Of a DNA stretch of 64,000 nucleotides, positions 2,759-17,529 are shown one piece after another (within the stretch, counting starts at the first letter, position 1; each line of letters opens with the position of its first letter). The DNA lies in NCBI RefSeq assembly GCF_055900595.2, contig NZ_JBVWEU010000002.1; one strand, 5' to 3'. The DNA is from a plasmid. The notes beneath the pieces were generated by a model that saw only the letters and a list, made by a program, of their open reading frames with translations, did not search any database and was not told the origin of the DNA. The translations under genes were made by a program, and so were the position numbers.

Positions 2759-2976
2759 TACCATCAATACAGTGATATTGCCAGGCTCTTCCAGGGTTAT
2801 ACTGAATGCAATGATCCGAAAGGATGATGAATGGATTGATTCATACCACAAGTTTTCATTTTGACATCCTCCACGCCCTAAGGACGAGGGGTCCTGCTTC
2901 AACGGGCGGCATCCGTCATCCGCCAATACATTGAATAGCAGCAGACACCTGGTTAGGTGGAAAACAGCGCCTTATA

Positions 2977-2999
2977 TCCCCGCTGAAGGACGGGGTTTT
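2977..2999 (+). terminator. possible rho-independent terminator
   Basis: hairpin ccccg-ctgaagga-cgggg followed by TTTTA, about 220 bp downstream of the LysR gene. Confidence 0.3.
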
Positions 3000-3173
3000 A
3001 CGGTGCACGGATAAAAGGAGCATGAATGATGGAGTATGTAGAAGTATCGGAGAAAATTTGATATTCTTCTTGATAAAATGAGATTTTCTGCACATATAAG
3101 CATACAGGAGATTCATAGTACAAAAATAAAAAATCATAATAATAAACTTAAATTGACATAACTATAATCAACT

Positions 3174-3581
3174 TTGAACAGGAATATATTAATGATAAAA
3201 CAAAAGGTATTTTTCTCAGGTACTGTACTAGCTATTTTTTTATCTCTCAGCAACGTATCTTTGGCTTCCGGCCTGGATAAAAACATGCAGTCTCTTGCCA
3301 AAAGTATGAGTATTCTACAATCTTCCAATGATAAATCATCACTATTAAATGCTCTTGAAATGATGGATAAATCTGTAGATTCTTCTATGAATATTATTCC
3401 TGAAAAGATAGATGTTAATGATAAAGTTTCTGTAGATAATTATAAGGAAGAGTTAAAAAAACTACAACATGAAATCAATATTGCAAAAAAGAAAGTTGAG
3501 GACGGGAATATAGAATCATTACGTGAGTCTCTGGATAAAATGAACGATATAAAACTTGAAGGTCACCGAAAATTCAGATGA
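3174..3581 (+). CDS. cytochrome b562-family periplasmic protein (CybC-like), divergent
   Basis: 135 aa with signal peptide; alignable to cytochrome b562 including a Met near the mature N-terminus (LDKNMQSL) and a C-terminal His (EGHRKFR) at the expected heme-ligand positions; gene is AT-rich relative to its surroundings. Confidence 0.5.
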   Translation: MNRNILMIKQKVFFSGTVLAIFLSLSNVSLASGLDKNMQSLAKSMSILQSSNDKSSLLNALEMMDKSVDSSMNIIPEKIDVNDKVSVDNYKEELKKLQHEINIAKKKVEDGNIESLRESLDKMNDIKLEGHRKFR

Positions 3582-3832
3582 TCTACAAAAATAAATTTTA
3601 ATATTTAAATACGGCAATATATTTTATCATGTATTGCCGTCTTGGCGTATTCTTTCCGTTCCATTCAATTGCATCTGGCATAACAAGAGAAATAGTAGAC
3701 TCCTCATTACTGCTGTTGTATAACTGCGCACCATAATCTGCTAGACTGGCCCCCTGAATCTCCAGACAACCAATATCACTTAAATAAGTGATAGTCTTAA
3801 TACTAGTTTTTAGACTAGTCATTGGAGAGCAG

Positions 3833-4198
3833 ATGATTGATGTCTTAGGACCGGAGAAACGCAGACGGCGTACTACACAGGAAAAGATCGCTATTGTTCA
3901 GCAGAGTTTTGAACCGGGAATGACGGTCTCCCTTGTAGCCCGGCAACACGGTGTGGCAGCCAGCCAGCTATTTCTCTGGCGCAAGCAATACCAGGAGGGA
4001 AGTCTTACTGCTGTGGCCGCAGGAGAGCAGGTCGTTCCTGCCTCTGAACTTGCTGCTGCCATGAAGCAGATTAAAGAACTCCAGCGCCTGCTCGGCAAAA
4101 AAACGATGGAAAATGAACTCCTTAAAGAAGCCGTTGAATATGGGCGTGCAAAAAAGTGGATAGCGCACGCGCCCTTATTGCCCGGGGATGGGGAGTAA
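3833..4198 (+). CDS. insC: IS2 transposase OrfA (InsC)
   Basis: [40 protein letters not shown] matches IS2 InsC; the annotated ORF starts 15 codons upstream at 3788. Confidence 0.85.
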
Positions 4199-4821
4199 GC
4201 TTAGTCAGCCGTTGTCTCCGGGTGTCGCGTGCGCAGTTGCACGTCATTCTCAGACGAACCGATGACTGGAAAGATGGTCGCCGCAGCCGTCACTCCGATA
4301 ATACGGATGTGCTTCTCCGTATACACCATGTTATCGGAGAGCTGCCCACGTATGGTTATCGTCGGGTATGGGCGCTGCTTCGCAGACAGGCCGAACTTGA
4401 TGGTATGCCTGCGATCAATGCCAAACGTGTTTACCGGATCATGCGCCAGAATGCGCTGTTGCTTGAGCGAAAAACCGCTGTACCGCCATCGAAGCGGGCA
4501 CATACTGGCAAAGTGGCCGTGAAAGAAAGCAATCAACGATGGTGCTCTGACGGGTTCGAGTTCCGCTGTGATAACGGAGAAAAACTGCGAGTCACGTTCG
4601 CGCTGGACTGCTGTGACCGTGAGGCACTGTACTGGGCGGTCACTACGGGCGGCTTCGACAGTGAAACAGTACAGGACGTCATGCCAGGAGCGGTGGAACG
4701 CCGCTTCGGCAACGAGCTTCCGGCGTCTCCAGTAGAGTGGCTGACGGATAATGGTTCATGCTACCGGGCTAATGAAACACGGCAGTTTGCCCGGATGTTG
4801 GGGCTTGAACCGAAGAACACA
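4156..4821 (+). pseudogene. insD: IS2 transposase OrfB (InsD), truncated after about 222 codons
   Basis: [34 protein letters not shown] matches InsD; the frame then continues in-frame into unrelated ABC-transporter sequence. Confidence 0.8.
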
Positions 4822-5292
4822 GAGTTGAGTGCGTCTATCCTGGAGAACGTTGCTGTTGTGCCTCAAAAAGCCGTTCTGGTGCAGGGAACTATTCGTGATA
4901 ATATTCTGTATGGAACCGATGACATTCTTCCCGATGATGAACTGTTTTGCATCCTGAATTCATTAGGGTTAATTAAAGAGGACTGCGGAGAACATTTCCT
5001 TGCTTTCCTAGACCGGGATATTAATCCTCTGGGTAGTGGTTTGAGTGGTGGAGAGATCCAGCGATTATGCATAGCCCGCGCCCTAGCCCGTAAGAAAAAG
5101 ATTATCGTACTTGATGAACCCACGGCCTCTATTGGCGAAGAACTCGCGATAAAGATCATTACCTATATCCGGCAGCATTGCCCTACCGTTATTATTACAA
5201 CTCATAATCCACGAATTCTGGAGCTCGCCGATCATTTTTTTGATGGTATGTCAAAGTCTTGCGTCATTGCTGGAGAAGGCAGAGACCAATAA
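4822..5292 (+). pseudogene. 3' fragment of an ABC-transporter ATP-binding protein gene (exporter type)
   Basis: translation carries ABC signature LSGGEIQR, Walker [11 protein letters not shown] and H-loop TTHN; the 5' two-thirds of the gene is absent (replaced by IS2). Confidence 0.6.
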
Positions 5293-5493
5293 ACCACACA
5301 CGTTAATTCATTTATATCTAATCGGGGTTGTACGCCGGAAACGCCGAAATTTCCGATACAGCGAATTTGTTGATTTTTGAAGCATGTTTGGAAGGTTTTG
5401 ACGTGTACGTTTATGGTGCAGTAAGTGAGAATTTATTCGTACCAGCCATATGATACGTTACGGGCAGTGATTTTTCGCGCTAGACAGCTATTT

Positions 5494-5746
5494 GGGGTTT
5501 GGGGAGTAGTGGAACTCAAAAGGCGGTTAAGCGGTTCAATTGAATGGTCAATAACAGGTAAATCAATCTGTTGAGATCAACAACGTCGTTTGTTCCGCAA
5601 ACGGCCAGGATGAGTAAAGCCAACTTGGCCCCCCCCAAAACAGATAGCCAAGAACGCAGATTCACGATGTAAATTGGCTGGTTGATTTTTGGCTATTTAA
5701 AATGACCGCTTAACGGCGGTTATTGTTCCACTGAGCCTCAAACCCC
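5494..5746. mobile_element. Tn3-family-derived inverted-repeat miniature element (no transposase)
   Basis: 38-bp terminal inverted repeats ggggtttggggagtagtggaac...gttaag (5494-5531) and the reverse complement of ggggtttgaggctcagtggaacaataaccgccgttaag (5709-5746), closely resembling Tn3/gamma-delta 38-bp IRs, flanking about 177 bp of non-coding DNA. Confidence 0.5.
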
Positions 5747-5969
5747 GAAACCTGGATTTTTCCGCGACCAGTAACGGCGTGGGTTGTCACATAAACGACC
5801 GATTGAGTGACTGTCACTGAAACAACGATTTCTGCATCAGATTTCGTCACATAACCCGTCACCTATTCAACGTCATGCAAATCTGTCAATTACTGGCTTT
5901 GGTTACGGAATTTTCTAGGTTTTCGGCTTAGAACCCCAAATAGTCTTAACGTGGTTTATTTTCCGAATT

Positions 5970-6248
5970 TCAAGCGCCCCCCTGGATGAGCGTGATGATT
6001 ACTGGCGGACCTTTGACGTTCCAGCAAATTCCCCTGTTCCACATAGGTTTCCAGATATGACCGGTTATTTTCACGTTCGGTGTACGTGTTACAGCTGCAT
6101 TATCAATATCATCAGGGATAAAATTGTAAGATCGTGGAAAATGTTTATTCATAGCCCGGATGATGGCTGTCTGTGCATCCTTTGTTCGGGCGCGGTGTTT
6201 CCATTCACGCCAGCCATCCACCTCAGAAATAATAACAGTAATCATCAA
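5970..6248 (-). CDS. hypothetical protein
   Basis: 92-aa ORF immediately downstream of and co-oriented with the 233-aa ORF; no family recognised. Confidence 0.35.
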   Translation of the reverse strand: MMITVIISEVDGWREWKHRARTKDAQTAIIRAMNKHFPRSYNFIPDDIDNAAVTRTPNVKITGHIWKPMWNRGICWNVKGPPVIITLIQGGA

Positions 6249-6302
6249 AACCTCGTGTCGTTACTCAATTTTGATTCCATAGCGGGACAGCATTTCACAT
6301 AA

Positions 6303-7004
6303 TTATGCCCCGTTATGAATGCAGGCGTCCTTCAAATTGCTGTCCGGTGTGACAGTTTTCGATGGTTGGTTGCAACGAGCATCTTCTGTCTCTTTCATCC
6401 TGGCGTTATAACGCTGCGTGTGTTTTTCAAGTTTTGCCTGCGCATACAGCGCTTCTTCCTCCGTTACAGTTCCATGAACTTTGCCATCCAGACCATAACG
6501 CGGAGTACCTGCGACTGATATACGCTGCAGATATTTGTAACCGCCAGTAATCATCCTTACAGCACAATTCCATTCTTTTACAGTTAGTCCACACTCAGGA
6601 CTGGCCGAAATAAAAGCCATGACATCCTTTGAGATGCCTATTTTAAATGCATGATATCCCCCCTCTTCAGCCCGTAACTGAGGGAATGTTTTTTTAACAC
6701 AGTCCAGACTGTGTCGGATAAACTCATGATTCCATCTATTGTTCTTCTTTTTTTTCTTCTTCTTACGTCCTGTTTTTTTCTGTTGTTCCGGGGAACCGGC
6801 CACTGTGGCTGGTATTTCAGGAGGTAATGAGTCGGTTTTAAATTCCATTACTGGCGCTGGTTTTATATCATCAGGAACTGCCTGTACAGCATCATCCTGA
6901 TGAGAAAGAATTCGTCTTTTTTTCTTAATAATAACAACAGGTGACGGTTTCTTTGTAACACTGCCCATATACACACCTCTGCGTATCGTTAATATATAAT
7001 GCAC
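6303..7004 (-). CDS. hypothetical protein with internal poly-lysine tract
   Basis: 233-aa ORF (alternative start MGSV at 6968); KKTGRKKKKKKKNNRW tract encoded by AAG/AAA repeats including an A8 run (T8 on the plus strand at 6748-6755). Confidence 0.4.
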   Translation of the reverse strand: MHYILTIRRGVYMGSVTKKPSPVVIIKKKRRILSHQDDAVQAVPDDIKPAPVMEFKTDSLPPEIPATVAGSPEQQKKTGRKKKKKKKNNRWNHEFIRHSLDCVKKTFPQLRAEEGGYHAFKIGISKDVMAFISASPECGLTVKEWNCAVRMITGGYKYLQRISVAGTPRYGLDGKVHGTVTEEEALYAQAKLEKHTQRYNARMKETEDARCNQPSKTVTPDSNLKDACIHNGA

Positions 7005-9095: not shown

Positions 9096-10025
9096 TCACG
9101 CTCGATGCATCAAATCCTGATAAATCCCCGTCAGTATTCCTTGTAAGCTAAATTCTCTTTTTATCCACTGAGTGACTTGACCGCTTGCCGAATGCCTGGT
9201 TGCCAACAGCATTCGTGAATCCTGACGTGGGTTGTGGATCTGCCGTGTCACCAGCAATGACTTTTCCATCGCTTCACGCACCATATAGTCTGGCAGAAAA
9301 CCGATTCCCTCCCCCAAGATCTGGCACTGAAGCTTAGTATTAAAGTCGGGAACCAGAATCGACTCTTGCCCGTGTAACAGCCAGCCGACTTTTTTGTTTA
9401 TAGTGTTTGCAGTGTCTTCCACCATGATGTTCGGGTACAGACGTAACTGACTCTCAGAAATGGGCTCAGGAATAAACGCCAGCGGATGAGCCGGAGAAAT
9501 CGCGAACAACCAACGAATCATGCCGATTTCAATGTAATCAATTCCACCACCGTCCAGTAACGTATCGGGCGCGCCAATGGCGATATCAGCCTGGTTATTA
9601 ATGAGTGAATCCCAGACGCCATTATACACCTCTGTAGTAATAGCTATCTGGCAGGTTGGAAAGTGTTCCCTGAGCACTTGCAGAAGCCGAGCTGTATGCT
9701 GAGGGGTATACAACAGTTGATTAATACAAATGCGCACCCGGGATTTAATTCCCTGAGCGATGGCATCAACTCTACGTATGATGGAGTGGTAATCGTTGAG
9801 CAGGTCAGTTGCTTTGCAAAAAAGGTAGTGCCCGGGCTCGGTCAGCTCAATGCTACGGGTAGTTCGGGTAAAAAGCACCACGTCAAGCCCCATTTCCATA
9901 CGCTTGATAGTGTAACTAATTGCCGATGTGGTTAAGCCCAGTTCCTTCGCCGCCTTGCTGAAACTTCTATAGCGGGCAGCCATAGTAAATGCCAGTAAGT
10001 TTTCTTCCGTAAATATTGAATTCAT
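9096..10025 (-). CDS. LysR-family transcriptional regulator (YahB-like)
   Basis: HTH motif FSKAAKELGLTTSAISYTIKRMEMGLDVVLF; start placed at the internal ATG (MNSIFTEENLL) rather than the 352-aa extended ORF. Confidence 0.8.
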   Translation of the reverse strand: MNSIFTEENLLAFTMAARYRSFSKAAKELGLTTSAISYTIKRMEMGLDVVLFTRTTRSIELTEPGHYLFCKATDLLNDYHSIIRRVDAIAQGIKSRVRICINQLLYTPQHTARLLQVLREHFPTCQIAITTEVYNGVWDSLINNQADIAIGAPDTLLDGGGIDYIEIGMIRWLFAISPAHPLAFIPEPISESQLRLYPNIMVEDTANTINKKVGWLLHGQESILVPDFNTKLQCQILGEGIGFLPDYMVREAMEKSLLVTRQIHNPRQDSRMLLATRHSASGQVTQWIKREFSLQGILTGIYQDLMHRA

Positions 10026-10412
10026 CTTTCTTTCCTCTGGCGACAATACACATACACAACATGATGATTGTTGAATGTATTTGTAATTCTTATAACCGAC
10101 AATCAGTTTTGAAAAAACTAACACCGTATTTACATTTAATTTGAAGGAAATCACACATCTGAATTTTAATTACAGGCAGCTATCCGTGCTGCAGACCACC
10201 TTTATTTATATGACTGCGGATTAATGGCTAAAATATCCCCAGCTATAATAGAAATATTGCACTATATCACACTCTCTTATTATTGTTAATTTTGTTTCAA
10301 TAATTCATGGTCTAATGATGAGTAAATTTTAAATGGATGGTGCTCTATGCATTCTGTTGCTATTCTTGGCTTGTTATATTTGTAAAATCTTAAAAAGAGC
10401 AGGAGATCGATT

Positions 10413-11018
10413 ATGTCCAATAAAGAACTCATTACAGAATTTCTGCTGGCGGCAGAACAAGGTAATTCCGATGGATTAAAATCATGCCTTGATAAAAAGG
10501 TTGATATTAATGCGACTAACCGCGAGGGGCGTACTGCAATTATTATTGCCAGTCTGAATAAACATTATGACTGCGTTTCTTTATTGATTTCCGCAGGTGC
10601 TGATATTAATAAACAAGATCAAACTTGTTTTAATCCCTTCCTGATTGGCTGCCTGAATAATGATTTAACACTGTTGCGTACGGTATTACCGGCTAACCCC
10701 GACCTTAATTGCCTAACCCGTTTTGGCGGTGTTGGTATTACACCTGCCTGCGAAAAAGGCCATGTCGAGATTGTACGTGAATTGCTGATGCGTACTGATA
10801 TCAATGTCAACCATACTAATTTTGTTGGCTGGACGCCGCTCCTAGAGGCCATCGTGCTGAATGACGGCGGTGAAAAGCAGCAGGAGATCGTCAAACTGTT
10901 GCTTGAGCATGGCGCAAACCCGCACATGACGGATAAATACGGTAAAACCCCGCTGGAGCTGGCGCGAGAAAAAGGCTACCACAAAATTGCCGAGTTGCTG
11001 ATTTCGGCTGGAGCCTGA
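10413..11018 (+). CDS. ankyrin-repeat protein (YahD-like)
   Basis: 201 aa with repeated ankyrin motifs (GRTAIIIASLNKHYDCVSLLISAGADIN; GWTPLLEAIV...LLLEHGANPH; GKTPLELAREKGYHKIAELLISAGA). Confidence 0.8.
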   Translation: MSNKELITEFLLAAEQGNSDGLKSCLDKKVDINATNREGRTAIIIASLNKHYDCVSLLISAGADINKQDQTCFNPFLIGCLNNDLTLLRTVLPANPDLNCLTRFGGVGITPACEKGHVEIVRELLMRTDINVNHTNFVGWTPLLEAIVLNDGGEKQQEIVKLLLEHGANPHMTDKYGKTPLELAREKGYHKIAELLISAGA

Positions 11019-11103
11019 CAACAGGAGCACGATTATCGCTATATTATCACGGCAATCTTTTCGGGCACTAACCGCAGACTGCGCGTTTCTCACTTTTCGG
11101 GGA

Positions 11104-11952
11104 ATGGGCCAGGTTGAACAGGTTTTTTCCCATGCGGTAAATCTGTTAATACCTGAACAGCAGCGACTGCTGACGTTACTGAGTGAGGATTGTGATAACG
11201 CACCTAACAGTTGTCGTTTAGCACTGACACATTATGAAGACCTTTTTCACCCCGGTGAACAGGTCAATTTTAGCGGGTCTGGAATAACTGTTGGAAATGA
11301 TAAATGGATAGAAATAACCGGTTGTCAGATGTGGCGAATACCACGGTGGACATCTGATTCAGCAAGCCTTGCCAAAGTCGGCTGGCAGCATTGGGAAGAG
11401 TTTATCCGCCAACAACTAAGAAGCAACGACACATTATTTCTGTACCAGGGTGACAATCCATTTTATCAGGAAATTTCTCGCCAATTACTCAACCGCCGAA
11501 AAAATTTGCTGAAGGCGTTGTGTACAGGAGAAAACATCACTGCGGCAGTCAACCAGTTAATTGGTCTTGGAATAGGGCTGACGCCATCATCGGATGATTA
11601 TTTAGTAGGTTTAAGCACTATTTTATTTATTCAAGGACATCCACTAAGGAAGTATAGATACGATTTCTTAGCAGCATTACAACTTGCAGGAAATAACATA
11701 ACGCTTCTCAGCAAAATAACGTTAGAGGAAGCATTTAATCAGCGTTATCGGGAAAGAGTCGGACGGCTACTGAACCAATTTATTACTGAGCCACAACCCA
11801 TTTCTACGCAATATGTTACTGACATAAAAAATATAGGCTCAAGTTCTGGATGCGACATGCTGTATGGCATGGCGGATGCCTGCGCCCTGAGCCACAGGTC
11901 CGGAGGTAATTATGTCAATCAGGATAGTTGTAAAAAAAAACACGTATTTTGA
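11104..11952 (+). CDS. YlbF/YahE-family protein (DUF2877-like)
   Basis: 282-aa ORF overlapping the downstream FdrA-family gene by 41 nt; position and size match yahE in the E. coli yah cluster as recalled. Confidence 0.6.
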   Translation: MGQVEQVFSHAVNLLIPEQQRLLTLLSEDCDNAPNSCRLALTHYEDLFHPGEQVNFSGSGITVGNDKWIEITGCQMWRIPRWTSDSASLAKVGWQHWEEFIRQQLRSNDTLFLYQGDNPFYQEISRQLLNRRKNLLKALCTGENITAAVNQLIGLGIGLTPSSDDYLVGLSTILFIQGHPLRKYRYDFLAALQLAGNNITLLSKITLEEAFNQRYRERVGRLLNQFITEPQPISTQYVTDIKNIGSSSGCDMLYGMADACALSHRSGGNYVNQDSCKKKHVF

Positions 11953-13459
11953 TTCTGTTTCACTGATGTCTATCTCCACGCGCGCAAATAAGCTTGATGG
12001 AGTTGAGCAGGCATTTGTTGCTATGGCGACAGAGATGAATAAGGGGGTGCTGAAGAATCTCGGTCTGCTGACCCCTGAGCTGGAAGAGGCGAAAAGTGGC
12101 GATCTGATGATTGTCATTAAAGGTACCAGCGAGGAGGCGAACGAGCGGACGCTAATAGCGATTGATGAGCTGTTTGCGCATAAAGAACAGGGAGGCCAGC
12201 ACGAAGCACGCTATGCCACGATTGCCAGTGCGAAGAAGCATGCTCCAGAGAGTAATCTGGCGGTGATCTCTGTCAATGGCCTGTTTGCTGCTCGTGAAGC
12301 TCGTCAGGCACTACAAAATAACCTCAATGTTATGCTGTTTTCTGACAACGTCTCTCTTGAGGACGAGCTGGAACTCAAGCATCTGGCACATGAAAAAGGG
12401 TTGTTGATGATGGGGCCTGATTGTGGAACCGCCATCATTAACGGCGCAGCGTTGTGTTTTGGCAATGCAGTGCGTCGCGGCAACATCGGAATCATTGGTG
12501 CCTCCGGTACGGGTAGCCAGGAGCTGAGCGTACGCATTCACGAATTTGGCGGCGGGATTTCCCAGCTGATTGGGACAGGTGGACGCGATATGAGTGAAAA
12601 AATTGGCGGCCTGATGATGCTTGACGCGATTAGCATGCTGGAGGCCGATCCACAAACTGAGATCATTACGCTTATATCCAAACCTCCTGCACCAGCGGTA
12701 GCCCGTAAGGTGCTGGAACGTGCGCGCACCTGTCACAAGCCTGTGGTGGTGTGTTTCCTCGGACGTGAGTCCACCCCTGCGGATGAAGAAGGCCTACAGT
12801 TTGCCCGCGGTACTAAAGAGGCTGCCTTGAAAGCGGTACTGTTGACTGGTGTGAAAAAAGAGAGTCTGGATTTGCATCCGCTCAACTGGCAGCTGATTGA
12901 AGAGGTTCGCTCCCGTCTGACTCCACAACAAAAGTATATCCGTGGCCTGTTCTGTGGTGGCACGTTATGCGATGAAGCGATGTTTACTGCCATGGAAAAA
13001 CTCTCGGATGTGTATAGCAATATTCACCCGAATCCGGCGTTCCGCCTTACAGATCTCAACCGTAGCGTGGCGCATACCTTCCTCGATTTCGGCGATGATT
13101 ATTTTACCAACGGCAAACCACATCCGATGATCGATCCCACCAATCGCATTACCCGGCTCTTGCAGGAAGCACAGGATCCTGAAGTTGGCGTGATCGTGAT
13201 GGACTTCATTCTTGGATTTGGATCACATGAAGATCCGGTTGGAGTGATGCTGGATACAATTGTTGAAGCCAAAGAAATTGCTGCCGCAGACGGTCGCCCG
13301 CTTGAGATCCTCGGCTATGTGCTGGGAACCGACCTTGATACACCGTCGCTGAAAAAACAGTGTCAGATGTTGACCGATGCCGGGGTTATTTGGGCAAGCA
13401 GTAGCACCAACACCGGATTACTGGCACGTGAATTTATATTTAAAGGGGAGGAAGGCTGA
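11912..13459 (+). CDS. FdrA-family protein (YahF-like)
   Basis: 515 aa with CoA-ligase-like glycine-rich motifs (MMGPDCGTAIINGA, GNIGIIGASGTGSQE); length equals E. coli YahF as recalled. Confidence 0.75.
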   Translation: MSIRIVVKKNTYFDSVSLMSISTRANKLDGVEQAFVAMATEMNKGVLKNLGLLTPELEEAKSGDLMIVIKGTSEEANERTLIAIDELFAHKEQGGQHEARYATIASAKKHAPESNLAVISVNGLFAAREARQALQNNLNVMLFSDNVSLEDELELKHLAHEKGLLMMGPDCGTAIINGAALCFGNAVRRGNIGIIGASGTGSQELSVRIHEFGGGISQLIGTGGRDMSEKIGGLMMLDAISMLEADPQTEIITLISKPPAPAVARKVLERARTCHKPVVVCFLGRESTPADEEGLQFARGTKEAALKAVLLTGVKKESLDLHPLNWQLIEEVRSRLTPQQKYIRGLFCGGTLCDEAMFTAMEKLSDVYSNIHPNPAFRLTDLNRSVAHTFLDFGDDYFTNGKPHPMIDPTNRITRLLQEAQDPEVGVIVMDFILGFGSHEDPVGVMLDTIVEAKEIAAADGRPLEILGYVLGTDLDTPSLKKQCQMLTDAGVIWASSSTNTGLLAREFIFKGEEG

Positions 13460-14877
13460 TGAGCCAGACACTGTTTAATCAGCCGCTGAACGTTATTAAT
13501 GTCGGTATCGAAATGTTCAGCGATGACATGAAAAAGCAGAATGTACCGGTAACCCAACTTGACTGGACACCGCCAGGCCAAGGAAACATACAAGTGGTAA
13601 CGGCACTGGACGACATTGCCGCTTCACCACTGGCAGACAAAATTGCAGCTGCTAATCAGCTGGCGCTGGAACGCATTATCCAGTCGCATCCTGTGCTAAT
13701 TGGCTATGATCAGGCGATCAACGTCGTGCCGGGTATGACCCGTAACACTATCCTTCACGCCGGGCCGCCAATCCACTGGGAAAAAATGTGCGGCGCAATG
13801 AAGGGCGCAGTAACCGGGGCTCTGGTATTTGAAGGACTGGCGAAAGATCTGGATGATGCCGCCGAACTAGCTGCTTCAGGTGAAATCATCTTCTCTCCGT
13901 GCCACGAACATGACTGTGTCGGCTCAATGGCGGGTGTCACGTCTGCATCGATGTTTATGCACATCGTCGAGAACAAAACCTATGGAAACCGCGCATATAC
14001 CAATATGAGCGAGCAGATGGCAAAGATCCTGCGTATGGGCGCTAACGACCAGAGCGTTATAGAGCGTCTTAACTGGATGCGAGATGTACTGGGACCTATG
14101 TTGCGCGATGCTATGAAGCTGGCGGGCGAAATCGATCTGCACTTGATGTTAGCGCAGGCGCTGCATATGGGCGATGAGTGCCATAACCGCAACAACGCCG
14201 GGACGGCGCTGCTGATTCAGACGCTGACGCCGTGGATTATTCAGACTGGCTACCCTGTTGAGCAGCAGCGTGAGGTGTTCGAGTTTGTCCTCAGTAGTGA
14301 TTACTTCTCAGGACCAACATGGATGGCAATGTGTAAAGCCGCAATGGACGCTGCGCACGGCATTGAATACAGCACCGTGGTGACAACGATGGCACGCAAT
14401 GGTGTTGAGTTCGGTCTTCGTATTAGCGGTTTGCCGGGCCAGTGGTTTACCGGTCCGGCGCAGCAGGTGATTGGGCCGATGTTTGCGGGCTATAAGCTAG
14501 AGGATTCCGGACGTGATATCGGTGATAGTGCAATTACCGAAACCTACGGCGTTGGCGGTTTCGCTATGGCGACGGCACCAGCTATTGTGTCACTGGTGGG
14601 CGGAACAGTTGAGGAAGCTATTGATTTCTCACGTAAAATGAGAGAAATCACTCTCGGAGAAAACCCCAACGTCACCATTCCCCTGCTTGGTTTTATGGGC
14701 GTACCGACCGCTATCGATATTACACGTGTAGGCAGTACAGGCATTCTGCCGGTAATTAACACAGCCATTGCGCACAAAGACGCAGGGATCGGCATGATCG
14801 GCGCAGGAATTGTTCACCCGCCGTTCACTTGTTTTGAAAAGGCGATCCTCAACTGGCGTGACCACTACTGCCAATAA
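13459..14877 (+). CDS. YlbE/YahG-family protein (DUF1116-like)
   Basis: 472 aa; start codon overlaps the upstream stop (ATGA); length equals E. coli YahG as recalled. Confidence 0.7.
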   Translation: MSQTLFNQPLNVINVGIEMFSDDMKKQNVPVTQLDWTPPGQGNIQVVTALDDIAASPLADKIAAANQLALERIIQSHPVLIGYDQAINVVPGMTRNTILHAGPPIHWEKMCGAMKGAVTGALVFEGLAKDLDDAAELAASGEIIFSPCHEHDCVGSMAGVTSASMFMHIVENKTYGNRAYTNMSEQMAKILRMGANDQSVIERLNWMRDVLGPMLRDAMKLAGEIDLHLMLAQALHMGDECHNRNNAGTALLIQTLTPWIIQTGYPVEQQREVFEFVLSSDYFSGPTWMAMCKAAMDAAHGIEYSTVVTTMARNGVEFGLRISGLPGQWFTGPAQQVIGPMFAGYKLEDSGRDIGDSAITETYGVGGFAMATAPAIVSLVGGTVEEAIDFSRKMREITLGENPNVTIPLLGFMGVPTAIDITRVGSTGILPVINTAIAHKDAGIGMIGAGIVHPPFTCFEKAILNWRDHYCQ

Positions 14878-14989
14878 CAATAACCGGGGCTAACGCAGTT
14901 AGCCCCACAGTAGCGGAAAACGTTGTTTACCTTCAGGGCTGGGCGATCTCCATGATCGCAAACGATGCTTAACCTGTTAAGGAGATTCC

Positions 14990-16540
14990 ATGAACAGCAT
15001 AAAACTAGAATGGAAACGTGGTGACTGGGCGGCTTACTTTGGACTGATGACCAACAATCTGACTAACCTGCTGACAATGATGGGTCTGCTAATTTTTGTC
15101 GTCGGAATCCCTACTGAAATTGTCTATGGACGCATTGCGCCTGCCTTTGGTCTTGCAGTGCTGGCGGCCAGTGTCTGCTACTCCTGGTTTGGTCTACAGA
15201 TGGTGAAGAAAACCGGTCGTAGCGATGTAACGGCGCTGCCGTCTGGACCGAGCGCACCCTCAATCTTTACCGTGACATTCCTGGTGCTGATGCCGGTTTA
15301 TCAGCAAACCAAAGATGCCAACTTTGCTATTCAGATAGGATTGGTGTGGTGCTTTGTCGAAGCGTTGATCCTGGTCGGTGGCTCCTTCCTGGGTGAGACT
15401 ATCCGCAAGATGATCCCGCGTACAGTGCTGCTTTCTTGTCTGTCCGGACTGGGGTTATTACTGCTGGCAATGAACCCGATGCTGCAAGCGTTCGAAGCGC
15501 CGACAGTTTCTTTCATCGTCCTGTTATTGATCTTCATTAACTGGTTCGGTAAGAAGCCGATTTTTCCCCATATTCCTACCGGTTTGCTGTTGCTGATTGC
15601 TGGTACGTCCCTAGCGTGGATATCCGGTTTACAAAGCCCGGAAGACATTAAAGCGTCGATGTCTTCCTTCGGCTTCAACCCGCCGGAAATTCATGTAAGG
15701 AGCTTCCTGCAAGGTTTGCCGCACGCTCTGCCATATCTGGCTTCTGCAGTTCCTTTGGGCCTGGCTAACTACATTTTTGACCTCGAGAACATTGAAAGTG
15801 CGCACGCGGCTGGTGATGAATACAACACCCGTAAGGTCATGATGGCGAACGGCTTTGCCTCCATGCTCGGTTGCATGCTGGGTAATCCGTTCCCGGTAAC
15901 CGTATATGTTGGGCATGCAGGCTGGAAAGCTATGGGCGCTAGTATCTGCTATACCCTCGCATCAGGCATCACTATGTTCCTGGTGCCATTGTTTGGGTTG
16001 GGCGCGTTTATGCTCGCCATTATTCCCATGACTGCTATAGTGCCAATTCTGGTTTTTATCGGTGTGGTAACCGCCAATCAGGTGGTGCGAGAAACTCCTA
16101 AAGTCGAGGTTCCCGTCATTTTCATCTGTCTGTTCCCATGGGTCGCCAACTGGGCATTGACCATCGTTAACAGCGTGATGGGCGCAGCCGGAACATCCGC
16201 TGAGAAACTTGGTAGCGACCTGTTGCACAGCAAAGGCGTCTATTACGATGGACTGATGCATCTGGGAAGCGGTGCACCGCTGGCCAGCATGCTGTGGGGA
16301 TGCATTGCTATCTTTGCCATTATGAATAAGCCGCTGCGCGGGGCGATAGCTGCATCCTTTGGAGCACTGTTATCGCTGTTTGGCGTGATTCACTCCCCAG
16401 CGGTTGGCTTTGCGGAAGGCAGCTCGATTGTGTTTGTTGTGGCCTACCTGATGATGCTTGCTATGTTTGCCCTCAAGCATGTTATTGATAGCCGTGAAAC
16501 AGTGGCTGCGTCTGAGCAGGAAGAGACTAAAACGACCTGA
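14990..16540 (+). CDS. polytopic membrane permease (possibly NCS2/AzgA-like)
   Basis: 516 aa with many hydrophobic segments; sits between yahG-like and carbamate kinase genes; family assignment tentative. Confidence 0.6.
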   Translation: MNSIKLEWKRGDWAAYFGLMTNNLTNLLTMMGLLIFVVGIPTEIVYGRIAPAFGLAVLAASVCYSWFGLQMVKKTGRSDVTALPSGPSAPSIFTVTFLVLMPVYQQTKDANFAIQIGLVWCFVEALILVGGSFLGETIRKMIPRTVLLSCLSGLGLLLLAMNPMLQAFEAPTVSFIVLLLIFINWFGKKPIFPHIPTGLLLLIAGTSLAWISGLQSPEDIKASMSSFGFNPPEIHVRSFLQGLPHALPYLASAVPLGLANYIFDLENIESAHAAGDEYNTRKVMMANGFASMLGCMLGNPFPVTVYVGHAGWKAMGASICYTLASGITMFLVPLFGLGAFMLAIIPMTAIVPILVFIGVVTANQVVRETPKVEVPVIFICLFPWVANWALTIVNSVMGAAGTSAEKLGSDLLHSKGVYYDGLMHLGSGAPLASMLWGCIAIFAIMNKPLRGAIAASFGALLSLFGVIHSPAVGFAEGSSIVFVVAYLMMLAMFALKHVIDSRETVAASEQEETKTT

Positions 16541-16566
16541 ATAGCCTGCAAACGGAAGATAATTCT

Positions 16567-17529
16567 ATGAAAGAACTTGTGGTCGTTGCCATTGGTGGCA
16601 ACAGCATTATCAAAGATAACGCCAGCCAGTCGATTGAGCATCAGGCGGAGGCGGTGAAGGCCGTCGCCGATACGGTTCTGGAAATGCTGGCTTCCGATTA
16701 CGACATTGTGCTGACCCACGGCAACGGGCCGCAGGTCGGTCTGGATTTACGCCGCGCGGAGATAGCCCACGAGCGCGAAGGGCTACCCTTAACGCCGCTG
16801 GCGAACTGTGTGGCGGATACGCAAGGCGGCATTGGCTATCTGATCCAGCAGGCGCTGAACAACCGGCTGGCGCCTCACGGCGAGAAAAAAGCCGTCACCG
16901 TGGTGACTCAGGTGGAAGTGGATAAAAACGATCCGGGGTTTGTCCATCCCACCAAGCCCATCGGTGCATTCTTTAGTGAAAACCAGCGTGATGAACTACA
17001 AAAGGCAAACCCTGACTGGCGTTTTGTTGAAGATGCCGGACGGGGCTATCGCCGCGTGGTCGCCTCGCCGGAACCGAAACGTATTGTCGAAGCACCTGCC
17101 ATTAAGACTCTGATCCAGCAAGGCTTTGTGGTGATTGGCGCGGGCGGCGGTGGCATTCCGGTGGTGCGTACTGACGCAGGGGATTACCAAAGCGTGGACG
17201 CGGTTATCGACAAAGATCTCTCTAGCGCGCTACTGGCTCGCGAAATTCACGCCGACATTCTGGTGATCACCACCGGCGTGGAAAAAGTGAGTATTCATTT
17301 TGGGAAACCCAACCAGCATGCACTGGATACAGTGGATGTCCTAACGATGGCCCGTTACATGCAGGAGGGTCACTTCCCGCCTGGGAGTATGTTACCGAAG
17401 ATTCTTGCCAGTCTGGAGTTCCTGGAACGTGGAGGTAAAAGAGTGATTATCACCACGCCTGAATGCCTGTCCGCGGCACTGCGTGGCGAAACAGGCACCC
17501 ATATTATCCACTCCCAAGAGGAGACGTAA
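16567..17529 (+). CDS. carbamate kinase (ArcC/YahI-like)
   Basis: 320 aa; N-terminal motif VVVAIGGNSI and HGNGPQVG typical of carbamate kinase. Confidence 0.85.
   Translation: MKELVVVAIGGNSIIKDNASQSIEHQAEAVKAVADTVLEMLASDYDIVLTHGNGPQVGLDLRRAEIAHEREGLPLTPLANCVADTQGGIGYLIQQALNNRLAPHGEKKAVTVVTQVEVDKNDPGFVHPTKPIGAFFSENQRDELQKANPDWRFVEDAGRGYRRVVASPEPKRIVEAPAIKTLIQQGFVVIGAGGGGIPVVRTDAGDYQSVDAVIDKDLSSALLAREIHADILVITTGVEKVSIHFGKPNQHALDTVDVLTMARYMQEGHFPPGSMLPKILASLEFLERGGKRVIITTPECLSAALRGETGTHIIHSQEET

Follow-up and report, generated by a model that had tools for sequence, protein, structure and literature searches.

Organisation of the locus

The locus lies within a window of 64 kb (the whole stretch of plasmid DNA that was analysed) and, as judged from its sequence, holds one intact gene, which encodes a protein of the cytochrome b562 family and is flanked by defunct pieces of four unrelated elements. 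On its left the AT-rich patch is bordered by a fragment of about 105 bp (2911..3016) from the terminus of an IS609-type element of the IS200/IS605 family. This fragment is approximately 91% identical to sequence lying under or adjoining the annotation "tnpA: IS200/IS605 family transposase" in 5397 out of 5426 E. coli genomes, and in K-12 RV308 its counterpart is found where the insQ/tnpA (IS609) element ends on the tnpA side. To its right follow the b562-like gene, a piece of a serine protease autotransporter gene, the 5' part of IS2 and the 3' end of an ABC exporter gene. The b562-like gene has a GC content of 31% and its flanks are still poorer (26% at 3017-3191 and 21% at 3582-3639), compared with 50% for the entire window. 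All the elements named in an earlier note on this DNA were found in the places it had assigned to them. The single islet in which it had united them was not upheld, as the IS609 fragment lies to the left of the b562-like gene and both the autotransporter fragment and IS2 separate this gene from the ABC tail.

The autotransporter piece (3640..3741, minus strand) is a 100-bp internal fragment of the passenger domain of a SPATE (S6 serine protease autotransporter) gene, truncated on both sides, with about 80% nucleotide identity to plasmid genes encoding S6 peptidases. A tblastn search matched it, on the minus strand, to residues 489-539 of a 1363-residue S6 peptidase (E=1e-13); only residues from approximately 503 to 539 match inside the fragment, the first residues of the alignment extending into the end of IS2. 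When EspP and the autotransporter of L002 were used as queries, no match was obtained. A remnant of the b562-espP gene order seen in pO157 was also considered and rejected, the fragment being internal and in the opposite orientation.

The same sequence is present, with 100% identity at this locus, in pAPEC-O2-211A-ColV and many other ColV plasmids. Among the matches listed, all those of full length are at least 99.9% identical over the 2.6-kb stretch; copies covering at least 80% of it occur in 103 complete E. coli genomes and in at least 70 plasmid records of PLSDB, and ColV copies are at least 99% identical. RefSeq already labels the locus with "cytochrome b562" and "IS3 family transposase, frameshifted pseudogene". 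It is an ordinary mosaic in the accessory part of a ColV-type IncF virulence plasmid of E. coli, already annotated and containing no new system. The locus belongs to a widespread plasmid lineage and is of little consequence for the window.

The b562-like gene and its cassette

The longest open reading frame of the b562-like gene (3174..3581, plus strand) begins with TTG and would encode 135 residues. The ATG at 3192 is the likelier start, since it is kept in all homologous cassettes, since it is preceded, at a distance of 9 nt, by an AGGA ribosome-binding site, and since it is the start used by RefSeq (WP_000595317.1). The gene would then span 3192..3581 and encode a predicted periplasmic protein of 129 residues. 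The secreted b562-like protein proposed in the earlier note therefore stands as regards its family and its ligands, with its length shortened from 135 to 129 residues.

A search with family HMMs, which the same note had suggested, gave a match to the Pfam family Cytochrom_B562 (PF07361; E=9e-15, 55.6 bits against a gathering cutoff of 30 bits) extending over the whole domain (residues 34-135 counted from the TTG, profile positions 2-102 of 102). The score against the NCBIfam equivalog PRK15058 was 66.2 bits, under the curated cutoff of 130, so that the protein is a member of the family whose match to E. coli CybC falls short of ortholog grade. To judge by these comparisons it belongs to a paralogous, plasmid-specific clade. 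Its N-terminus shows the features of a Sec-type signal peptide, as read from the residues (a positive n-region, a hydrophobic core and SLA/S at the putative cleavage site), covering approximately residues 1-25 with cleavage at …SNVSLA/SGLDKNM, and export to the periplasm by the Sec pathway is predicted.

The predicted heme ligands are Met32 and His125, numbered Met7 and His100 in the mature chain. In the phmmer alignment with the E. coli b562 precursor (PDB 9tmp) LDKNM falls on LEDNM (Met7) and GHRKFR on YHQKYR (His102). Moreover, in an alignment of 12 sequences Met32 is invariant and His125 is present in 11, the exception being apparently frameshifted. Both alignments agree with the earlier claim that the two heme-ligand positions align to b562 in an otherwise diverged protein, the identity to E. 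coli CybC being only about 19-21%. The AlphaFold model (mean pLDDT 77.6) contains helices at residues 7-44, 48-68, 75-103 and 107-128, and the best Foldseek matches were the b562 structures 4er9 and 256b and BRIL fusions, with a TM score of 0.85 normalised to the target. The predicted fold is accordingly the antiparallel four-helix bundle of b562. The first helix of the model continues out of the signal-peptide region. One heme b is predicted to be bound through Met32 and His125, and the protein may serve in the periplasm as a small redox carrier or a heme holder.

With the E. coli and Salmonella CybC proteins (256B, 4ER9) the ColV protein shares PF07361, a Sec signal, a mature four-helix bundle of approximately 104-106 residues and the placement of the axial ligands, with Met7 near the N-terminus and a histidine four residues from the C-terminus. 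It differs from them in its low identity, its plasmid location and low GC content, its score below the equivalog cutoff and a loop between helices 2 and 3 that is two residues shorter. When 100,044 species genomes were scanned for a donor of the AT-rich gene, only five short contigs that resemble contamination were returned, and a word-based protein search retrieved only E. coli and Klebsiella sequences.

The gene is the centre of a self-contained cassette comprising an upstream region, the open reading frame and a terminator hairpin. The AT-rich upstream region (3017..3191, same strand) is conserved in L018 and L020, two variants of the cassette, and in part in L002. A promoter scan of this region gave nothing beyond a weak sigma-70-like match at 3112-3140, hits being no more frequent than in shuffled sequences, and the best matches to Fur and OxyR boxes (with 6 of 19 and 7 mismatches, respectively) were equalled by 15% and 22% of the shuffles. 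Downstream, an inverted repeat (ACGGCAAT…ATTGCCGT) at 3606..3643, on the plus strand, forms a terminator-like hairpin that closes the cassette, with a terminator-like hit at 3635-3647. Its stem is kept in L017, L018 and L020, the sequences diverging directly downstream, and in every variant the homology among the cassettes stops at this hairpin, at about position 3640. No terminal repeats suggestive of a mobile cassette were seen at the cassette ends, and an Rfam search gave no match. An apparent deletion of window positions 2908-3082 in L017 was discounted, there being Ns at the L017 junction.

The IS2 remnant and the ABC exporter tail

The IS2 remnant (3742..4820, plus strand) consists of the first 1079 bp of the element, with the left inverted repeat, insC and codons 1-227 of the 301 of insD. 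The insC gene (3788/3833..4198) matches the NCBIfam model for IS2 TnpA (E=4e-83), and at the nucleotide level the remnant is 95% identical to the intact copies of IS2 carried by L002 and L008. The remnant retains the insC/insD overlap of an intact IS2 and differs from it in that its right end is missing and it is fused to foreign DNA. The last 252 bp have been lost, and with them the right inverted repeat as well as residues 228-301 of InsD, which include the region of the …NGIAESF motif; lacking its right end and the catalytic-E region, the remnant is immobile.

The ABC exporter remnant (4816..5292, plus strand) comprises codons 417-574, the last 157 codons, of the 574-codon D gene in a lasso-peptide cluster. 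It is 99.4% identical in amino acids and 99.6% in nucleotides to the ABC gene of CP057820.1 and NZ_CP126939.1. A three-way alignment of the window, an undamaged IS2 and the complete ABC gene maps the junction to 4816..4820, where 5 bp of microhomology (AACAC) are common to both partners. The earlier note had described a truncated insD running in frame into the end of an ABC gene and had attributed it to a deletion that removed the 3' end of IS2 and the 5' part of the ABC gene, and the alignment bears out both statements. The resulting frame of 378 residues (4156..5292) matches positions 1-227 of the 301 of IS2 TnpB (NCBIfam NF006918, E=1e-152) followed by the last 157 residues of the exporter, its residues 226-361 matching the C-termini of ABC exporters. 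A sequencing artefact, which would have undermined the chimera, is ruled out, as the stretch recurs almost unchanged in the many plasmids and genomes described above. The tail keeps the signature motif, Walker B and the H-loop and has lost the transmembrane domain and Walker A (SAPSGFGKST, which in the intact protein aligns upstream of the breakpoint, at approximately residues 381-390), and is for this reason non-functional. The chimera is an accidental in-frame pseudogene, capable of neither transposition nor transport. As to the order of events, IS2 would have inserted into the SPATE gene, of which the 100-bp internal piece survives, and a microhomology-mediated deletion would have joined the 5' part of IS2 to the end of the exporter gene.

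The search for the intact exporter gene and its partners in related plasmids, also suggested earlier, led to a complete four-gene lasso-peptide cluster on 23 other plasmids. In L003 and L004 the intact gene encodes a full-length half-transporter, with both its transmembrane and its nucleotide-binding domain, and adjoins the genes for an Asn-synthase-like cyclase and a lasso B2 protein, and none of the lasso A, B or C genes was found near the tail in the window. The tail with the same endpoint is present on about 75 plasmids and, among those listed, all the tail-only plasmids have their endpoint at query position 3697. The parent cluster resembles mcjABCD of microcin J25, in which McjD is both the exporter and the immunity protein, in being plasmid-borne in E. 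coli and in combining a short precursor with an Asn-synthase-like cyclase, a B protease of the transglutaminase-like type and an ABC exporter. Its gene order differs, being A-C-B-D on one strand, and its 62-residue precursor is presumably unrelated to McjA. An identification of the tail as mcjD was dismissed, McjD being absent from the 39 PDB sequences matched at E<=1e-30, and cvaB was likewise judged improbable by comparison with the CvaB sequence. Literature searches gave no match to the lasso core peptide, and no description of this cluster of E. coli IncF/IncK plasmids was found in the searchable literature. The remnant points to a microcin-like lasso cluster on such plasmids that may encode a new antibacterial peptide.

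CydDC is required for the assembly of periplasmic b562, and CydD and CydC are among the best NCBIfam matches of the tail, which lies downstream of the b562-like gene on the same strand. It could therefore be imagined that the two genes were once partners in a CydDC-like heme-export/b562 operon that was broken by IS2. We regard this as extremely improbable. The scores against CydD and CydC fall far short of the family cutoffs (80 against 435 bits), the SPATE fragment lies in opposite orientation between the b562-like gene and IS2, the cassette homology ends before the tail at the hairpin, and the ABC gene adjoins none of the b562 relatives examined. Moreover, the near identity of the tail to the exporter of the lasso cluster, near which there is no b562 gene, in practice refutes a heme/thiol exporter partner of the CydDC type. 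The two genes are, from the gene comparisons, best described as unrelated neighbours.

Plasmid relatives, selection and the katP link

An AT-rich gene of this kind had been thought unusual for a plasmid accessory region, which was wrong: relatives of the b562-like gene are carried by 581 PLSDB plasmids, including pO157 (L7018). In three diverged lineages (pO157, L007 and L015) the relative lies directly downstream of a gene encoding a periplasmic catalase-peroxidase, at a spacing of 38-46 nt. The gene orders are katP-b562-espP in pO157, a katG-like gene followed by b562 in L007 and a peroxidase gene followed by b562 in L015. Between the KatP-like proteins identity is 86-87%, whereas the adjoining b562 proteins share just 48-53%, and the gene order has nonetheless been kept.

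The ColV protein is 41-45% identical to L7018 (EDL933_p0016) and the katP-linked relatives, and shares with them the plasmid-borne clade, the length of 129 residues, the AT-rich gene and the motifs LDxxMQxLAxNMSxLQSS…GH+KFR. It differs in the absence of katP upstream, in having its own upstream region and terminator and in its position between the IS609 and SPATE fragments; its upstream neighbours are the IS609 fragment and a LysR gene. No KatP homolog was found within the 64-kb window by tblastn. As neither katP nor another obvious partner is present there, the physiological role of the protein on ColV plasmids is a matter of conjecture. The pO157 homolog has been found as a protein (PMC3686733; PMC5120812).

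Cassettes without katP also occur in other contexts. The variants L017, L018, L020 and L002, with 77-90% DNA identity, retain the full-length open reading frame and both ligands, and among the five orphan cassettes dN/dS is 0.15-0.41, mostly 0.2-0.3. The near identity of the ColV copies reflects recent common descent and is uninformative on selection, and the signal comes from these distant variants. The ColV copy is an orphan cassette that, by these substitution rates, remains under purifying selection, and the orphans show that the protein is selected without KatP too. The gene might instead be a hitchhiking relic, cut off from katP, silenced in AT-rich DNA (as such DNA may be), inert and still intact through recent acquisition. 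The mobile-element and gene fragments on both sides, the lack of a consensus promoter above the shuffle expectation, the absence of katP from the window and the high identity of the ColV copies would all fit such an origin. The constraint on the katP-free variants and the likewise conserved terminator stem and ribosome-binding site argue against it, and we consider it unlikely. A live b562 cassette, encoding a heme or redox protein and lying amid IS609, SPATE, IS2 and ABC debris on a ColV-type plasmid, is in our view probable.

The protein may also have kept the fold of b562 and not be a heme electron carrier, serving for metal binding, heme scavenging or the chaperoning of other heme enzymes in the periplasm, or as a protein-protein adaptor. 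Its low identity to characterised b562, its score under the equivalog cutoff and the fast evolution of the clade next to the conserved KatP-like proteins are compatible with this, and we know of no established physiological role for canonical cytochrome b562 itself. The two axial ligand positions are however the best-conserved functional positions of the clade, the Pfam match spans the entire domain and the structure match the whole b562 chain, which makes such a different role quite unlikely. A heme-binding redox protein, which we prefer, would take part in the response to peroxide stress or in heme-related redox chemistry of the periplasm, and could possibly make use of partners encoded on the chromosome, cytochrome b561 for instance.

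Of the leads that arise here, the katP link alone merits pursuit. The presence of b562 after a catalase-peroxidase gene in three plasmid lineages and in Yersinia provides a testable hypothesis for the function of b562. The b562 proteins of the plasmid clade might be dedicated partners, in the periplasm, of catalase-peroxidases of the KatP/KatY type, as electron donors to the peroxidase or in heme delivery, with the ColV orphan retaining, in avian and extraintestinal pathogenic E. coli, a related function in protection or heme handling. This proposal is speculative and for the present rather doubtful; if true, it would supply a physiological function for cytochrome b562. At the family level the arrangement resembles the katY-cybC-cybB operon of Yersinia, in which a b562 gene is likewise tied to a catalase-peroxidase gene. 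The Yersinia operon differs in being chromosomal and in including cytochrome b561 (cybB), no cybB-like gene having been seen adjoining any member of the plasmid clade examined. In Y. pestis the co-transcription of katY, cybC and cybB was confirmed by RT-PCR (PMC2231364), and in Y. pseudotuberculosis H2O2 co-induces cybB, cybC and katG (bioRxiv 10.64898/2026.03.04.709318).

Provenance and composition of the islet

Many ColV/ColBM-type IncF plasmids found in avian and extraintestinal E. coli are identical (100%) to the stretch from 2900 to 5500; one of them, pAPEC-O2-211A-ColV, is broadly collinear with the window across all 64 kb. At least 80% of this stretch is carried by at least 70 PLSDB plasmids and by 103 of 5426 complete E. 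coli genomes. The locus is an ordinary plasmid mosaic and has been annotated already. The open reading frames described in the earlier note are all present where it had placed them: a b562-like frame (3174..3581, +; 135 aa counted from a TTG), IS2 insC (3788..4198, +) and an InsD-ABC chimera (4156..5292, +; 378 aa). The AT-richness that it ascribed to the islet is also real, GC being 26-31% from about 3017 to 3640 against 50% in the whole window, and its description of the islet is correct overall.

In NC_007675.1, the pAPEC-O2-ColV reference of 2006 (locus positions 5175-6313), the b562 frame is frameshifted (116 aa), unlike in the window, and a run of Ns with a fimbrial-subunit fragment stands in place of 3578-3741, between b562 and the IS2 left end. 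The difference reflects either a genuine rearrangement or a fault of the old assembly.

The b562 protein and the katP linkage of its clade

The protein had been described as secreted and 135 aa long. The frame does extend from the TTG, but the ATG at 3192 follows an AGGA, and all cassette variants of the gene (upstream region, ORF and terminator hairpin) keep this ATG, so the protein is more probably 129 aa, the length that RefSeq gives for its 'cytochrome b562' (WP_000595317.1). It matches Pfam Cytochrom_B562 with E=9e-15 and 55.6 bits (gathering score 30) over profile positions 2-102 of 102, and scores 66 bits, under the cutoff of 130, with the NCBIfam CybC equivalog. A Sec signal peptide can be read at the N-terminus (MIKQK, a hydrophobic core, then SNVSLA|SGLDKNM); the predicted mature protein would start S-G-L-D-K-N-M, and its Met would fall at position 7, the very place that it has in E. 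coli b562. The alignment to both heme ligands reported earlier was recovered by phmmer against the PDB, where Met7 and His102 of the only match, the E. coli b562 precursor, are both aligned (E=1e-3); across a 12-sequence alignment the ligand Met is invariant and the ligand His nearly so. The AlphaFold model is a four-helix bundle (pLDDT 77.6), against which Foldseek ranks b562 structures and BRIL fusions highest (TM 0.85 to 4er9 and 256b). By these in silico tests the window protein belongs to the b562 family, and it probably binds heme. A role other than that of a carrier, built on the same fold, seems distinctly unlikely for a protein with these ligands conserved.

Among 1.84 billion representative proteins searched with a profile, the whole family comprises only 260 clusters, and the plasmid clade accounts for just two of them; none of 100,044 species genomes scanned gave a plausible donor. 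By tblastn, relatives occur on 581 PLSDB plasmids, about 85 of them ColV-type (at least 80% identity) and about 494, mostly pO157, at roughly 45% identity. The pO157 homolog L7018 lies 46 nt downstream of katP and upstream of espP (the katP-b562 pair spanning 4345-6988 of locus L005), and in two further diverged lineages a katP-like gene lies 38-44 nt 5' of a b562 relative (L007, 3743-6390; L015, 3749-6390); in all three the gap holds a GC-rich hairpin. Linkage to katP is thus recurrent in this clade. Among themselves the three KatP-like proteins share 86-87% identity, whereas the adjoining b562 proteins share just 48-53%; the gene order has survived strong divergence of the b562 protein, and the two proteins have changed at very unequal rates.

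In Y. pestis katY-cybC-cybB form a single operon by RT-PCR (PMC2231364), and in Y. pseudotuberculosis H2O2 co-induces cybB, cybC and katG (bioRxiv 10.64898/2026.03.04.709318). The pO157 b562 protein has been seen in proteomes and was 6.3-fold higher in piglet gut (PMC3686733; PMC5120812). For the plasmid clade, a literature search turned up no study of function. We suggest that the window protein is a heme b protein of the periplasm that serves as a small redox carrier or holds heme, in connection with peroxide stress. The katP-b562 partnership hypothesis is one of only two forward-looking leads from the region, the other being the lasso-peptide cluster discussed below.

The ColV cassette is an orphan, with no katP within the 64-kb window. 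Its nearest cassette variants lie in other contexts, also lacking katP, at 90% (L017), 80% (L020), 77% (L018) and 74% (L002) nucleotide identity, and their homology to the window stops just past the conserved hairpin at about 3640. Pairwise dN/dS among these orphan cassettes is 0.15-0.41, mostly 0.2-0.3, so purifying selection acts on the protein even where KatP is absent. Upstream of the gene, Fur/OxyR consensus and promoter signal did not exceed chance. That the ColV gene is a silent relic is a reading we regard as rather doubtful given the selection signal; a functional b562 on ColV plasmids would need partners encoded on the chromosome.

Several other occurrences were seen. On the Salmonella plasmid pCFSAN058598_01 (L006, 3812-6375) about 1.7 kb separates a gene of the b562 clade from sodC, for periplasmic Cu,Zn superoxide dismutase, which is another oxidative-stress neighbour of the clade. 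A different b562-family gene (P0077, 127 aa; L016, 5001-5384, from a Logan SRR30858635 contig) is flanked by an SLT transglycosylase gene and psiA/psiB in the leading region of an F-type plasmid, so b562 genes have reached plasmids more than once. Sequences of pO157 type (45-49% identity to the query) on very short contigs placed in Lachnospiraceae MAGs and in assemblies of Acinetobacter idrijaensis and Terrisporobacter mayombei (L010-L014) most likely stem from contamination by E. coli plasmids or from misbinning.

Debris around the gene and the IS2-ABC junction

Everything else in the region is debris. With an IS609 (IS200/IS605 family) terminus at 2911-3016 (about 91% identity; an element of nearly all E. 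coli chromosomes) on one side and an S6 serine protease autotransporter (SPATE) fragment followed by IS2 on the other, the b562 gene sits in a bracketed AT-rich patch of about 620 bp. The fragment at 3640-3741 has about 80% nucleotide identity to plasmid SPATE genes; on the minus strand tblastn matches residues 489-539 of a 1363-aa SPATE (E=1e-13), residues 503-539 or so falling inside the fragment. It is an internal scrap of the passenger domain adjoining the IS2 left end, and a SPATE gene was evidently the target of the IS2 insertion and later whittled away.

IS2 homology begins with the left inverted repeat at 3742 and extends to 4820 (95% identity to intact copies), ABC homology sets in at 4816, and the overlap is five shared bases, AACAC; the right inverted repeat is absent. 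The fusing deletion proposed earlier is thereby confirmed, as is the in-frame passage of insD into the ABC gene: the 378-aa frame matches IS2 TnpB positions 1-227 of 301 (E=1e-152) and then ABC exporter C-termini. The chimera is not a sequencing artefact, since it is identical on many plasmids and RefSeq already records 3833-5292 as a single frameshifted 'IS3 family transposase' pseudogene. Because intact InsD continues beyond the junction, the window copy lacks 74 C-terminal residues. Transposases of the IS3 family carry a DD(35)E signature, and the missing residues probably include the catalytic glutamate. Missing from the ABC tail are the transmembrane domain and Walker A (SAPSGFGKST); the latter aligns 5' of the breakpoint. 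The IS2 copy is no longer mobile and the fusion is incapable of transport; the in-frame run-on is a one-in-three accident.

Further upstream, the LysR gene ceases to be homologous to ExPEC chromosomes at about 2752. Two paralogous LysR-regulated operons (1-2758 and about 9096-17529) encode DUF2877, fdrA/AllF-like and DUF1116/AllG-like proteins and carbamate kinase, together with a permease of the cytosine/purine type and a protein with an allophanate-hydrolase C-domain. The operons resemble E. coli oxalurate/allantoin-branch genes, which could conceivably be of use in uric-acid-rich bird hosts.

Origin of the ABC remnant in a lasso-peptide cluster

The intact ABC gene and its partners, which the earlier note had proposed to seek in related plasmids, were found on CP057820.1 (L003, 3361-7472) and NZ_CP126939.1 as a four-gene, single-strand lasso-peptide cluster whose last gene is the ABC exporter. 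The remnant at 4816-5292 corresponds to codons 417-574 of the 574-aa exporter gene (99.4% amino acid and 99.6% nucleotide identity). The b562 gene and the ABC tail have no linkage by descent, and a former operon of the two is effectively refuted. The intact cluster is present on 23 PLSDB plasmids (E. coli IncF/IncK) and the tail alone on about 75; the start nucleotide is identical in every one listed, which points to a single ancestral deletion.

The exporter is preceded by a 62-aa precursor ORF, a 462-aa Asn-synthase-like protein (Pfam Asn_synthase 26.9 bits, cutoff 21; NCBIfam macrolactam-cyclase family 57.9 bits, below cutoff) and a lasso-peptide B2 protein (NCBIfam 82.8 bits, cutoff 33; Pfam Transglut_core3). 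With Thr at -2, Gly1 and Glu9, the putative precursor, MKKQ…KSTN|GTGGGSIIEGSYTVYRCDGGSVPSRPFGPPFCP, fits the known rules for lasso precursors; its predicted core, GTGGGSIIEGSYTVYRCDGGSVPSRPFGPPFCP, would form a G1-E9 ring and contains two Cys. The cluster is of the same kind as that of microcin J25, yet it is not MccJ25: the precursor seems unrelated to McjA, and McjD is not among the PDB matches of the exporter at E<=1e-30. The core peptide sequence had no match in the searchable literature, nor was a description of the intact cluster found there.

Just 3' of the ABC remnant, and conserved on several plasmid backbones, are a 92-aa ORF (5970-6248, -; a 96-aa hypothetical protein in RefSeq) with no Pfam match, and a gene for a ProQ/FinO-domain protein (6303-7004, -; 233 aa from GTG, 220 aa in RefSeq) with a lysine-rich tract, KKTGRKKKKKKKNN.
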